Shown here: piece by piece, positions 49,640 through 51,438 of the stretch
How positions within the stretch are numbered: the stretch's first letter is position 1
Layout: each line of letters opens with the position of its first letter
Position numbers and translations under genes: made by a program
Assembly (NCBI GenBank): GCA_016840095.1
Contig: JAEOSZ010000089.1
Coordinates: forward strand, 1 to 64,000
Length of the DNA stretch: 64,000 nt
Source of the DNA: Candidatus Heimdallarchaeota archaeon
GTDB taxonomy: Archaea > Asgardarchaeota > Heimdallarchaeia > Heimdallarchaeales > Heimdallarchaeaceae
Reading direction: 5' to 3'
Notes under the pieces: model-generated
Databases searched by the model: none
Seen by the model: the letters and a program-made list of their open reading frames with translations, nothing else
Told to the model about the DNA's origin: nothing

Positions 49640-49776
49640 ATCATGCTGATTGTTTCTTTCTGAAACATTCAATATACAGATTTCACCACCAGGATGGGAT
49701 CAGGATGACCAAACCAATCAGCTATCTCCCTTGCTAACAAAACAGTTTGGTCTTTCTGCTCCCACAAGGGTGAGAT
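49640..49776 (+). ncRNA. Putative structured cis-regulatory RNA, copy A
   Basis: 33/40 nt identical to 51274-51313, shared GGATCAGGAT, long hairpin 49695-49764. Confidence 0.6.
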
Positions 49777-49797
49777 TAAAAAACCGAGGTGACATAA

Positions 49798-49947
49798 ATG
49801 GCAAAAACTGTGAATAGTACTAAAAGAAAAATGAGGATAGAAAAAGCAATAGCAAATGCAGGATCAATAGTTGGCTATACTATACTCCTTGTATTCTCCA
49901 TTAGTCTGCTAGTAGTAGCTCTTCTATCAATAGCAAATCTGTCCTAA
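49798..49947 (+). CDS. 49-aa membrane peptide, not in the ORF track
   Basis: MAKTVNSTKRKMRIEKAIANAGSIVGYTILLVFSISLLVVALLSIANLS; GAGGTG RBS; paralog at 51464. Confidence 0.78.
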   Translation: MAKTVNSTKRKMRIEKAIANAGSIVGYTILLVFSISLLVVALLSIANLS

Positions 49948-50011
49948 AACTCTTTTTTTGTTTACTTCAACTATCTTAAGTAATTAGGAAATTTATGCCA
50001 AAGGGTCAAAC

Positions 50012-50041
50012 TTTATAAGGATGTAGGACTTAATACTACAT
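50012..50041 (+). promoter_or_regulatory. TATA box plus operator of P2
   Basis: TTTATAAG, then ATGTAGGA-CTTAA-TACTACAT. Confidence 0.7.
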
Positions 50042-50062
50042 GAGGGATGCACACTGGCTGAC

Positions 50063-50482
50063 ATGTCAAACGCAAAAAAGAAAGTTATTCGCTCTCGTGC
50101 AAGACGTTTTGCACTAGATTTATGGGATGCTCCGCTTGATCAGGGCTTACACTTGTATCAGGAAACTATGAATGAATTGTACAAAAAATCATCGCGATTG
50201 AGAATATGTTTGAAGTGTGGAGCCATTGATACAATACATGATTTGAATGAAGACACACATAAATGTGCATTAGATTTCAATAGATTTCCTGTTTTAGTAA
50301 CAACTAGTTGGATTGAAATGTCTAACTTTTTCTTAACTGATAAATATGTTAAAGCTTTACAAAAAATTGGTGTGGAACCAGATGTTGCGATAGAAGTTGA
50401 AGCTGCTACCGTTGATTCTTATCCTGAGGTATCTCAGATTGCATCTCCCGCTTCAGCTAAATCTAGATCTAAGGCAGATTAA
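50063..50482 (+). CDS. CxxC...HxC zinc-finger protein, paralog P2
   Basis: RSRARRFA, RLRICLKCG, HKC, FPVLVTTSW. Confidence 0.8.
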   Translation: MSNAKKKVIRSRARRFALDLWDAPLDQGLHLYQETMNELYKKSSRLRICLKCGAIDTIHDLNEDTHKCALDFNRFPVLVTTSWIEMSNFFLTDKYVKALQKIGVEPDVAIEVEAATVDSYPEVSQIASPASAKSRSKAD

Positions 50483-50523
50483 TCAAATTATAACCATTAA
50501 TTTTTAATTATATTTTTTCGAAT

Positions 50524-50750
50524 TCGTCGTGTTTTTGGCGACATCTTTTTTGAAATATAGGTAAATTTTGCCGTTTGATTGAAACTGTTCTAATCTGCTT
50601 CCTGTCTCTTAAAATTCGAAATTTGTGGTGTGTAGCGCCTTACACACACGTTTAACATGTCGCATATGGTGCGACATTATCTATTTTGCTTTGAGACAAA
50701 CTTTTCCTACTCAAACTCATTTATATAGGATGTCGCACTTCGTCCTACAT
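50524..50750 (+). promoter_or_regulatory. Promoter of operon 2 with operator ATGTCGCA-N5-TGCGACAT
   Basis: Perfect palindrome 50657-50677; variant 50730-50750 just after TATA TTTATATA (50720-50727); degenerate copy 50524-50544. Confidence 0.78.
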
Positions 50751-50777
50751 GTGAAAAACTTCACAAGGTGAAAAAAC

Positions 50778-50924
50778 ATGAAAGATTACGAAGTTTCGGC
50801 TGCATTGGATCAAAAAGTTAGGGCACTCCAAAGAGAGTTAAGACAGCTCAAAAGAGCTCGACGCGCCTTAAGATCAAAAAACCGTTCAAGGTTAGCTTAT
50901 CAGCGAAACCCTCTAGCAGGGTAA
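50778..50924 (+). CDS. Arg-rich coiled-coil microprotein (48 aa), not in the ORF track
   Basis: MKDYEVSAALDQKVRALQRELRQLKRARRALRSKNRSRLAYQRNPLAG; AAGGTG RBS. Confidence 0.8.
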   Translation: MKDYEVSAALDQKVRALQRELRQLKRARRALRSKNRSRLAYQRNPLAG

Positions 50925-50971
50925 GCTGATGCTCTCCTTTTTTTCTAAAATTACCTGGAGGTGAAAAAGAA

Positions 50972-51181
50972 ATGTTGAAAAGAAAAATGTGGATCTTCAA
51001 TAGACAATTTAACAGACCCGTTTGGATCATCAATAGACGATTTAACAGACCCGTTTGGATTATTAAGGTACAACAACCAATAATATATCTCTATAGATGT
51101 CTAATATTTGCTTTACCAGTATTCATCTATGCATTAGGTATAGCTTTTGGTGTATCCTTAGAAGTAGCAAGATACCTATAA
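50972..51181 (+). CDS. Small TM protein with an 11-aa tandem repeat
   Basis: GGAGGTG RBS; WIxNRxFNRPV repeats; TM segment resembles that of 49202. Confidence 0.7.
   Translation: MLKRKMWIFNRQFNRPVWIINRRFNRPVWIIKVQQPIIYLYRCLIFALPVFIYALGIAFGVSLEVARYL
50990..51060 (+). repeat. 33-bp in-frame tandem repeat (2 copies plus partial)
   Basis: tggatc(t/a)tcaatagac(a/g)atttaacagacccgtt, 31/33 identical. Confidence 0.9.
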
Positions 51182-51273
51182 GATTTAGAAAAGTGAGTAA
51201 ATCCCTTTTCTTCTTCTTATTCTTCTTGCATTTATGATTATAACCTGACTAACCAAAAAAATGGTTGGTCATT

Positions 51274-51438
51274 ATCACGCTGATTGTTTCTTGCTGAAGC
51301 ACTCATTACGCAGCAATCAGTCTGCTGAGGATCAGGATTTGGGCAAAGATGAAAATTGTGTGCGGCTTGTTTTCATCTTGCTCTCCTGAACCTACTCAAC
51401 TGGGGAATACTCTGCTTCCTCTAGCAGAGTATTAAACC
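51274..51438 (+). ncRNA. Putative structured cis-regulatory RNA, copy B
   Basis: Conserved 40-nt block, long hairpin 51328-51393, perfect 11-bp hairpin 51406-51433. Confidence 0.6.

Follow-up and report, generated by a model that had tools for sequence, protein, structure and literature searches.

Why would the DNA in front of two small genes be better kept than the genes themselves? The question is raised by two paralogous genes for 49-aa peptides, A and B, of Candidatus Heimdallarchaeota archaeon, which we studied within a window of 64,000 nucleotides, the whole stretch of DNA analysed (contig JAEOSZ010000089.1; all positions are those of the window). A 40-nt repeat, noticed in a sequence-only reading of this DNA, lies upstream of each gene (Table 1). 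Its copies agree at 33 of 40 positions, and the degenerate pattern used to search the window gave 0 matches in 100 shuffles. As also described there, GGATCAGGAT follows the repeat in both places, at a spacing of 18 nt in copy A and 15 nt in copy B. Between the paralogues of the window, identity reaches 82% in the 40-mer and 88% in P1, the hairpin that forms its core, against 61% in the peptide ORFs, for which random 150-nt pairs run through the same aligner set a baseline of 59.5%. Since the ORFs are thus at baseline, the upstream segment, hereafter the leader, is conserved beyond the coding sequence.

Range of the leader and its link to the peptide genes

The 3.44-Mb assembly holds just these two copies of the 40-mer, a search of the rest of the genome having found none; a tblastn match on contig C3 was rejected as an extra copy, as it falls inside a 754-aa membrane protein. 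Outside this genome, 7 more members of the genus and 0 of 22 other genomes of the order carry the 40-mer motif, and a covariance model (genus scan) matched 12 of 25 genomes and nothing elsewhere in Heimdallarchaeaceae. The family also occurs on a few metagenome contigs: a 17-base pattern retrieved 96 stretches from metagenomes, just four of them real members (L092 and L146, identical to each other, L133 and L174). These motif and model searches confine the leader to one Heimdallarchaeaceae genus. A covariance model made from six type-B leaders alone retrieves the type-A leaders with E values of about 1e-6 to 1e-8; by this model search, the two types are homologous (paralogous) leaders.

The leader stands 5′ of the 49-aa peptide gene, every recovered type-B peptide locus has one, and neither the model nor the metagenome searches revealed an occurrence away from its gene cluster. 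Peptide A is found without it in G015 and G019, and it is likewise absent before peptide A in G023 and G016. In G015 and G019 the deletion is clean, which indicates that the leader is dispensable for peptide A there.

Could the conserved segment itself be translated? A coding reading of the 40-mer was rejected: four of the seven differences fall in one codon phase, as expected about half the time (hand calculation), the frame of copy A has no start, and orthologues do not retain the copy-B ORF. Among orthologous leaders, which differ by 1-2-nt indels, no upstream ORF keeps a conserved frame or start, and a 13-codon upstream ORF within the P3 hairpin of type B is broken by indels and stops in the window and in G009. 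By these comparisons, the leader is non-coding.

Architecture of the leader

Both peptide genes are preceded by what comparison and folding define as a conserved folded RNA leader of ~150-190 bases. From 5′ to 3′ it comprises P1, a variable spacer element (the short hairpin P2 in type B, an outer helix around P3 in type A), the long hairpin P3, a further hairpin P4 that some type-B leaders add, and then an A-rich linker, GAGGUGA and the AUG.

Table 1. Features of the two leader-peptide units (window coordinates)
Feature	Position	Strand	Basis or remark
T7 run after weak hairpin	49623..49629	+	sequence
Conserved 40-nt block, copy A	49640..49679	+	degenerate pattern and genome search
P1, leader A: UGA-U-UGUUUC / loop UUUCU / GAAACA-U-UCA	49647..49671	+	MFE and centroid fold
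Outer helix enclosing P3, leader A (49679-49687 with 49769-49777)	49679..49777	+	fold
P3, leader A: base GGGAUCAGGA, inner stem GACCAAAC/GUUUGGUC	49693..49765	+	96.7% of cells paired in 8 type-A leaders
SD GAGGTGA and ATG, peptide A	49786..49800	+	
49-aa peptide A: basic N-terminus, C-terminal transmembrane helix	49798..49947	+	
TATA-like TTTATGATTATAA, presumed promoter of leader B	51231..51243	+	TTTAYRATWAY in all type-B loci; function presumed
P0 palindrome GACTAACC-N8-GGTTGGTC	51247..51270	.	placed after TATA like the palindromes at 50021 and 50730
Conserved 40-nt block, copy B	51274..51313	+	degenerate pattern and genome search
P1, leader B: UGA-U-UGUUUC / loop UUGCU / GAAGCA-C-UCA, one U.G pair	51281..51305	+	fold and pair counts
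P2, short variable hairpin, leader B	51311..51327	+	fold and pair counts
P3, leader B: base GGAUCAGG/CCUGA.CC, inner stem GGGCAAAGAUGAAAA/UUUUCAUCUUGCUC, apical GUGUGC conserved	51328..51393	+	fold and pair counts
P4, CU-rich loop, leader B	51402..51440	+	fold and pair counts
SD GAGGTGA and ATG, peptide B	51450..51466	+	
49-aa peptide B	51464..51613	+	
T24 run	51644..51667	+	sequence

P1, UGA-U-UGUUUC-UUGCU-GAAACA-C-UCA, is 5′-proximal and has 98% of its cells paired in 23 distinct leaders. All but one of 24 leaders share the same loop; the left arm is invariant and the right arm more variable. A diverged clade carries a compensatory change from UGA/UCA to UGU/ACA, together with a one-base bulge in one arm, and two independent A-to-G changes each yield a U.G pair. 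The sole stem-breaking change belongs to L086, the copy that lost its peptide. The helices behind the structural claims of the sequence-only reading are mostly other than the conserved ones. That reading had proposed a small covarying stem (TCTG/CAGA versus GCTG/CAGC), which does not survive comparison: type-B orthologues have GCTG...CAGA or GCTG...CAAA, the segment is deleted from the type-A leaders of G008 and L193, and the stem competes with the better-supported P1.

The long hairpins with unrelated inner stems, by contrast, were correctly recognised in both copies, with folding z-scores of -3.4 (A) and -4.3 (B). The base of P3, GGAUCRGGA, is conserved, and at one and the same place three lineages have unrelated inner stems, each of which stays paired. 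Other parts are more fluid. In the long type-A variants the outer helix extends to 12 bp with one compensatory change (AUAUC/GAUAU versus AUUUC/GAAAU). In P2, where all four pairs change on both sides, no more than 73% of cells pair and lineages differ in register. P4 cannot be aligned in the diverged clade. Junctions, P2, the P3 apex and P4 are exchanged between leader types.

Two further pairings had been proposed, of which orthologues do not uphold the first and uphold the second in part. A complement to one conserved segment is indeed there in both copies of the window, CAATCAGC at 49715 and CAATCAG at 51314, but the GCTGATTG complement is absent from other type-B leaders and degraded in long type-A leaders. 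Pairing of the hairpin loop of copy A with 49765-49776 gains one compensatory change, AUCUC/GAGAU in the window versus AUCCC/GGGAU in G008 and L193, but is missing from the longer type-A variants. We also rejected an alternative pairing of GGAUCAG with CUGAUU of P1, broken in the diverged clade (CUGUUU), and a kissing interaction between CUUGC of the P1 loop and GCAAG of the P3 apex, possible in most type-B leaders of the G000-like kind and found neither in the window copy nor in the diverged clade.

Taken over 23 distinct leaders, 93.5% of cells are paired, as against 38-51% with slid partners, and 22 of 54 pairs vary on both sides; shuffling gives 11.4 ± 2.3 such pairs and sliding 4-10, and a second count came out similarly. 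The alignment was fitted to the model, and its ~24 closely related sequences represent few independent events. With type A alone and an unfitted alignment, covariation is not significant (2 pairs versus 1.8 in shuffles). The + strand folds better than its reverse in 18 of 24 leaders and G.U pairs are many; in the diverged clade the reverse strand folds better in four of five. The leader thus emerges as a conserved, structured, non-coding element of the + strand, with compensatory change above the controls.

P1 as RNA or as DNA

The main rival to the RNA reading, and in our judgement an unlikely one, takes P1 as DNA: it would be an operator, ATTGTTTC-N5-GAAACAYT, an 8-5-8 inverted repeat bound by one of four neighbouring zinc-finger paralogues, and the hairpins downstream of it would be an ordinary structured 5′ UTR. 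The island does contain palindromes of this kind. ATGT-N13-ACAT occurs at 50021 and 50730, starting 2 nt behind the TATA boxes of the ZnF2 and ARM2 genes, and between orthologues the 5-nt spacers of these operator-like palindromes vary freely while their arms co-vary. P1, with one mismatch in its 8-5-8 repeat, has their geometry, including the 5-nt centre, and lies in the same 6-kb island; in the type-A copy of the window it sits 15-17 nt past an A/T-rich TATA-like run, which is operator territory, a second palindrome (P0) adjoins the type-B promoter, and the compensatory change in the stem would equally preserve a DNA palindrome. What sets P1 apart from the cluster operators is its fixed loop and asymmetric conservation, with an invariant left arm where the operator-like palindromes have free spacers and co-varying arms; its U.G-type changes, both right-arm substitutions yielding U.G pairs at the expense of DNA symmetry; and its variable distance from the promoter, 14 to ~57 nt from the TATA-like element. 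The one-base bulge of the diverged clade also speaks against an operator, and TGTTTC-N5-GAAACA occurs at no other promoter-like site of the genome.

Read as RNA, P1 resembles the short hairpins of fixed stem and loop near the 5′ end of protein-binding leaders, such as those of ribosomal-protein autoregulation, archaeal L7Ae K-turns and CsrA-type control. Sixteen of 24 leaders contain two copies of the hexamer CUUGCU, the pattern that a bivalent binder would call for. P1 differs from those leaders in having neither a K-turn (no tandem G.A pairs, and CUGAUUG is no C box) nor a GGA motif, and the gene under its presumed control is an orphan peptide, not the binder itself.

Promoters and transcript ends

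The leader would be transcribed from its own promoter. The T7 run probably terminates transcription of the upstream 126-aa gene, and could at the same time serve leader A as an A/T-rich promoter element. Type-A orthologues keep the hairpin and T-run, at a distance of 14, 25 or ~57 nt from P1. In the type-A copy of the window and in L189 the sole promoter-like, A/T-rich element is found 14-15 nt before GCTG; were this a TATA box, transcription would start within P1. P0, absent from the diverged clade, is probably a DNA operator, as its placement suggests. Oligo-T is an established archaeal signal for transcription termination, and the T24 run is likely the terminator of the leader-peptide B unit. 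A palindrome before the ZnF3 gene (52063) shares TTGCTGAA, which we took as chance, the palindrome not being conserved in orthologues.

Might the conserved element end before the peptide gene, as an independent small RNA gene or as a dual-function RNA that also encodes a small protein? We regard this as very improbable. L086 (contig C11 of G023) keeps P1 to P3 followed by a T-rich stretch with no peptide gene, and in G016 and G031 a T5 run directly precedes the SD. L086, however, is a recent rearranged duplicate and the bearer of the one stem-breaking P1 change, the interval from P3 to the SD has no T-run of at least 5 in the window copies and most orthologues, a separate peptide promoter would have no room, and the leader is never apart from this gene cluster. 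A parallel is offered by the small-protein RNAs and antisense RNAs of Methanosarcina mazei, archaeal transcripts in which a small ORF goes together with regulatory RNA features (bioRxiv 10.1101/2025.10.28.685009); they belong to a different phylum and have no sequence in common with the leader.

Comparison with known RNA classes

The covariance models of Rfam 15, riboswitches and ribozymes included, give no match at the gathering score anywhere in the window; at E<=10 over 49000-52200 the only match is a chance one to snR76 snoRNA (50242-50344), outside the leaders. The sequence-only reading, which saw a riboswitch-like, protein-binding or processing RNA matching no known class, was right about a new structured RNA, but nothing specific to a riboswitch or a ribozyme came to light, and of its three options protein binding would be the most plausible.

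A riboswitch, with expression of the membrane peptide governed by the binding of a small molecule or ion, seems to us highly unlikely. A conserved multi-helix leader that precedes a gene for a membrane protein and matches nothing in Rfam is what one might expect of it, and in short type-A leaders GGUGRGAU, the 3′ strand of the outer helix, has two possible partners, AUUUCACC and the P3 loop, and one compensatory change is seen. This alternative pairing is restricted to three close relatives, however, and conserved nucleotides gather in the stem and loop of P1 and the base of P3 instead of the junctions, which are variable. An expression platform is also hard to find. Most leaders have no T-run after a hairpin, as an intrinsic-terminator platform would, and in 22 of 23 leaders the best leader:SD duplex fails to exceed that of 200 shuffles in strength, so that a riboswitch-type platform acting on the SD is not supported. 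The predicted probability of an unpaired SD ranges from 0.0 to 0.59, with a pairing partner that differs from leader to leader; with anti-SD pairing at chance and SD accessibility inconsistent, the step from structure to translational control is left without computational support. The range, a single genus, is very narrow for a riboswitch.

Other classes were tried and set aside. The hammerhead catalytic core consists of CUGANGA ... GAAA around three stems; in the CUGAUUG of the leader the essential G and A are replaced, and no ribozyme model matches at E<=10. C/D-box sRNAs have a C box RUGAUGA, a D box CUGA, tandem G.A pairs and guide spacers of ~12 nt; CUGAUUG does not conform to the C box and lies just 7 nt away from CUGA, and neither P1 nor P3 has the tandem G.A of a K-turn. 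CreTA-type RNAs resemble the CRISPR repeat of their host and sit in a cas locus; a k-mer scan found no array in the assembly, and the neighbouring genes are not cas genes, which also disposes of a CRISPR repeat.

The peptides and their gene cluster

Both peptides are of the tail-anchored type: the N-terminus is basic (KRKxxxEK), and the ~25 residues or so behind it are hydrophobic. Their gene is an orphan restricted to one genus, in two paralogous copies; the family has no match in Pfam or NCBIfam at E<=0.01 and no Atlas family, the NCBIfam rows for the ARM2 peptide (E 0.035) and peptide A (E 0.094) being weak and far below the cut-off. In all genomes the locus is a syntenic chromosomal island between an FAD oxidase and a DEAD-box helicase, and its 6 kb also hold genes for four zinc-finger paralogues, for Arg-rich peptides of 48 aa and for glutaredoxin. 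To tell a DNA-binding from an RNA-binding zinc-finger family, its fold was compared with known structures: for an AF2 model (pLDDT 79) Foldseek gave no PDB match at E<=0.001, and the profile of the family has no match below E 0.9 among PDB sequences.

A small hydrophobic peptide behind a long leader recalls bacterial type I toxins, whose mRNAs are highly structured (Fozo et al. 2010, PMC2887945). The unit could be a genuine type I toxin-antitoxin system, a doubtful proposition in our view, with a 49-aa membrane toxin whose leader keeps the mRNA translationally inert until processing, and with an antitoxin in the form of a small RNA, antisense or partly complementary, that has escaped detection; if true, it would be the first such module in archaea. 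Like the toxins of tisB, zorO, shoB, dinQ, hok and aapA1, with their stable multi-hairpin leaders of >150 nt, the peptide has fewer than 60 aa, a charged N-terminus and one transmembrane helix, and the 5′ UTR is long, stable and, as in those mRNAs, better conserved than the peptide; an orphan gene of a single genus, present as two paralogues, also suits the proposal. It is opposed by the search for an antitoxin: the 89%-complete genome has no stretch complementary to the leader elsewhere, there is no inverted copy within 9 kb, and no conserved antisense promoter was seen. Nor is SD sequestration above chance, and 5′-3′ fold-back pairing of the bacterial kind is not supported. The leader has no relationship in sequence or in Rfam to the bacterial 5′ UTRs, its host is an archaeon, and the gene lies in a fixed syntenic island with zinc-finger, Arg-rich peptide and glutaredoxin genes, neither mobile nor multicopy.

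A proposed role for the leader

Our preferred explanation, to which we give about an even chance, is a new, genus-restricted, structured cis-regulatory 5′ leader on two paralogous membrane-peptide mRNAs, with P1 as the recognition site for a trans-acting factor. The leader probably controls the amount of peptide, and would do so in cis and post-transcriptionally. P1, fixed in stem and loop sequence alike, would be a sequence-specific dock for this factor, most likely a protein. Once docked, the factor and the stable P3 scaffold would together set the stability or the translation of the peptide mRNA. The layout is the one seen in bacterial type I toxin mRNAs, with their long and structured 5′ UTRs.

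A bolder version seems improbable to us. In this version, archaea would have in the two Asgard units their first RNA-controlled membrane-toxin (type I-like) modules, set within a small regulon of zinc-finger repressors, Arg-rich peptides and glutaredoxins, with P1 docking an RNA-binding protein encoded in the locus, and operator and leader exerting a two-tier control over a stress-induced membrane peptide.

Why would such a leader matter? To our knowledge, very few cis-regulatory RNA structures have been recognised in archaea, and a literature search found none described for Asgard archaea. The candidate presented here is compact, a nearly invariant 25-nt hairpin with a scaffold hairpin, tied to an orphan membrane micro-protein, and the small island around it encodes unrecognised zinc-finger proteins that have matching operators. 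If the leader merely stabilises the mRNA as a 5′ UTR, it would still be a new family of the Rfam type, of narrow range. With it one can ask directly whether type I-like toxin modules are found beyond bacteria, and studies of post-transcriptional control gain something concrete to work on in the closest prokaryotic relatives of eukaryotes.

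A constant 40-nt block in two leaders

A degenerate 40-mer matched the window exactly twice, once in each of two paralogous leaders (A and B) that precede genes for 49-aa peptides. The two copies agree at 33 of 40 positions, which confirms the repeat described by the sequence-only reading; no match arose in 100 dinucleotide shuffles, and the whole assembly (3.44 Mb, 89% complete) holds these two copies only. Both are followed by GGATCAGGAT and then by long hairpins with unrelated inner stems, as had also been noticed, and the folding energies lie far under those of shuffled sequences (z-scores of -3.4 over 49640-49800 and -4.3 over 51260-51466). 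Between copies A and B, identity is 82% over the 40-mer and 88% over its core hairpin, P1, whereas the peptide ORFs, at 61%, are at the baseline of 59.5 ± 2.3% that the same aligner yields on random pairs of 150-nt sequences. Therefore, the 40-mer block alone has clearly been kept constant within the duplicated unit.

Coordinates of features in and around the two leaders
Feature	Position	Strand	Remarks
40-mer copies	49640-49679; 51274-51313		leaders A; B
P1 hairpin	49647-49671 (leader A); 51281-51305 (leader B)	+	UGA-U-UGUUUC / loop UUGCU / GAAACA-C-UCA
TATA-like element	51231-51243		TTTATGATTATAA; type-B unit
P0 palindrome	51247-51270		GACTAACC-N8-GGTTGGTC; directly after TTTATGATTATAA
ATGT-N13-ACAT palindromes	50021-50041; 50657-50677; 50730-50750		second one perfect
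8-6-8 palindrome	52063-52084		TCTCTTCA-TGTTGC-TGAAGAGA; perfect
ORFs across leader region	49650-49817; 51261-51389
Zinc-finger paralogues (ZnF1-4)	47519-47944; 50063-50482; 52135-52611; 52643-52999	-; +; +; -	about 140 aa
48-aa Arg-rich peptides (ARM1, ARM2)	48464-48610; 50778-50924		coiled-coil-like, RALRKELNRLKRARR...; one heads each unit
126-aa protein	49202-49582
33-nt tandem repeat	50975-51040		in 69-aa membrane protein gene
T run, uninterrupted	51644-51667		24 nt, 3' of peptide B gene

The leaders lie inside a 6-kb island, between an FAD-linked oxidase/ETF operon and a DEAD-box helicase, which is syntenic in all genomes examined and is chromosomal, not mobile. Its order is Grx (glutaredoxin) - ZnF1 - (p62) ARM1 - p89 - ... 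- peptide A - ZnF2 - ARM2 - TM69 (a 69-aa membrane protein) - leader - peptide B - (Grx2) - ZnF3 - ZnF4. The Arg-rich peptides are kept in all related loci, even where peptide A has no leader. The TM69 repeat encodes FNRPVWII twice, and the 126-aa protein, its positional counterpart, contains repeated LIRT motifs. Residues C49, C52, H66 and C68 are invariant among the zinc-finger paralogues, whose family is confined to Heimdallarchaeota and has no Pfam, NCBIfam or PDB relative. Its AF2 model is confident (pLDDT 79) and gave no Foldseek match at E≤0.001; because the PDB holds no structural or sequence relative, the fold is uninformative on nucleic-acid preference.

Distribution and linkage to the peptides

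The 30-nt core pattern (up to 3 mismatches) is present in 7 further genomes of the host's genus and in 0 of the order's 22 other genomes. A covariance model built from six type-B leaders, R1, found leaders in 12 of the genus's 25 genomes and no credible match among the family's four other genera. It also detects type-A leaders, at E values of about 1e-6 to 1e-8, so the two types are homologous. A 17-base pattern, run over 241 million metagenome records, retrieved 96 stretches, of which only L092 and L146 (identical), L133 and L174 were members, while contigs of peptide homologues added type B L187, L188 and L194 and type A L189/L190, L191, L192 and L193, for 24 leaders in total, 23 of them distinct.

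All leaders but one run into GAGGTGA and, after 5-8 nt, the ATG of the 49-aa peptide, whose N-terminus is basic and whose hydrophobic helix is C-terminal. The A and B peptides are about 33% identical to each other and fall, at E≤0.01, into no family of Pfam or NCBIfam, nor into any Atlas family; their homologues are all Heimdallarchaeal 'hypothetical proteins'. Every type-B peptide locus has the leader. With type A it is present in the window, in genomes G008, G009 and G025 and in four metagenome contigs, is missing from G015 and G019 by a clean deletion of about 165 nt, and does not accompany type A in the diverged clade (G023, G016).

In G015 the type-B leader is split between hairpins P3 and P4 by a 355-nt insert (L048:3821-4175, - strand), and the peptide ORF 3' of it is intact. 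G015 contains at least 12 copies of the first ~80 nt of this insert, often located at contig ends, against two in G019 and none in the window's genome; the insert has no Rfam match and is a fragment of a mobile element. At L086 (G023 contig C11, 66839-67025) the module is found a second time in partial form, with ZnF2-like, ARM2-like and TM69-like genes and then a leader; the peptide gene is absent, P3 being followed by a T-rich stretch and unrelated sequence.

The conserved fold

P1 is paired in 98% of its cells over the 23 distinct leaders. The diverged clade has exchanged UGA/UCA for UGU/ACA, a compensatory change found in five sequences that represents one event. Two independent A-to-G changes (window B with L174, and L189) each give a U.G pair, the loop has changed a single time (G to U, window copy A only) and the terminal pair is mismatched in two sequences; an in-stem C.A mismatch occurs only in L086, the sole copy without a peptide gene.

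The serious rival to an RNA hairpin is that P1 is a DNA operator, as it forms an 8-5-8 inverted repeat and the same island contains operator-like ATGT-N13-ACAT palindromes. Those at 50021 (ZnF2 gene) and 50730 (ARM2 gene) begin 2 nt past TATA boxes, and in orthologues the position is kept, the 5-nt spacer is free and the arms change symmetrically (e.g. ATGTCGGA...TCAGACAT), as expected of putative operators of the adjacent zinc-finger paralogues. P1, unlike these free spacers, has a loop that is the same in 23 of 24 leaders; conservation is stronger in its left arm than in its right, where changes are of the U.G type; one lineage, the diverged clade, has a bulged A; and the nearest TATA-like element lies anywhere from 14 to about 57 nt away. 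The 8-6-8 palindrome after ZnF3's TATA-like element has TTGCTGAA in common with P1 and is not conserved in orthologues.

By the same orthologue comparison it is P0, adjoining the TATA-like element, that looks operator-like: most relatives carry GATCAACC-N8-GGTTGATC, one position being altered on both arms, and the diverged clade has none. P0 probably serves the leader-B promoter as its operator. Archaeal TATA elements are usually centred about 26 nt upstream of the transcription start, a spacing that would put the start of the type-B transcript 5-18 nt ahead of P1; the type-A copy of the window has only an A/T-rich element, so that its start would fall inside P1.

For the region as RNA, the leader hairpins contain many G.U pairs, and 18 of 24 leaders fold better as the + strand than as its complement, the exceptions including 4 of the 5 from the diverged clade. 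Because orthologues differ by 1-2-nt indels, and neither start nor frame of the ORFs crossing it is conserved, the leader region is non-coding.

Beyond P1, the 5' base of P3 (GGAUCRGGA) is conserved and its 3' strand still pairs, often via G.U. The inner stems are mutually unrelated among G000-like type B (GAGCUAAGAUGAA/UUCAUCUUGCUC), diverged type B (AAACA/UGUUU plus ACAAACUC/GAGCUUGU) and type A (GACCARAC/GUUUGGUC). Type B adds P2, a short hairpin shifting register by lineage, and, in the G000-like clade, P4, whose loop is CU-rich; in type A, P3 is enclosed by an outer helix, which is 12 bp in long variants, where AUAUC/GAUAU versus AUUUC/GAAAU is compensatory. In the 24-leader alignment, which was fitted to the model, 93.5% of cells are paired, against 38-51% with 3' partners slid by 1-3 columns, and both sides changed in 22 of 54 pairs, where column shuffles gave 11.4 ± 2.3 and slid controls 4-10. 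The independent events are few because the leaders are close relatives, and covariation was not significant on an unfitted MAFFT alignment (eight type-A leaders alone).

The sequence-only reading, which proposed a structured leader, is partly right in its main claim, but most helices it named in support are not the conserved ones. Its small stem (TCTG/CAGA versus GCTG/CAGC), which overlaps P1, is present in the window, but orthologues have GCTG...CAGA or CAAA and G008 and L193 lack the segment. The complement of GCTGATTG (49715, 51314) exists in the window copies and is not retained by other type-B leaders. Pairing of the copy-A loop with 49765-49776 gains one compensatory change in G008 and L193 (AUCCC/GGGAU versus AUCUC/GAGAU) but is missing in longer type-A leaders.

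Possible mechanism

How might such a leader act? The Rfam comparison that had been called for returned no known family. Riboswitch-type features are weak, the conserved bases lying in a hairpin and a helix base, not in junctions, and there is no terminator platform. In 22 of 23 leaders the best duplex between leader and Shine-Dalgarno (SD) sequence does not exceed that of shuffled leaders in strength, and predicted SD accessibility varies inconsistently among orthologues. The sequence lacks the hammerhead, C/D-box and K-turn signatures, the genome encodes no complement of the leader elsewhere, and no CRISPR array is present in the assembly. In 16 of 24 leaders there are two copies of the hexamer CUUGCU, one in the P1 loop and one in P3. 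A hairpin near the 5' end, fixed in sequence as well as in structure, is left together with a stable scaffold hairpin, and we therefore favour a leader that a trans-acting factor would read at P1 and that, with the scaffold hairpin, may determine how stable the peptide mRNA is or how well it is translated. One may speculate that the factor is one of the Arg-rich coiled-coil peptides or one of the zinc-finger paralogues.

In sum, the existence and fold of a real, new, genus-restricted structured leader RNA are reasonably supported, and we infer that it is transcribed and functional. It shares its architecture with type I toxin mRNAs; its interest is moderate, and would become high were the peptide shown to be toxic and under RNA control.
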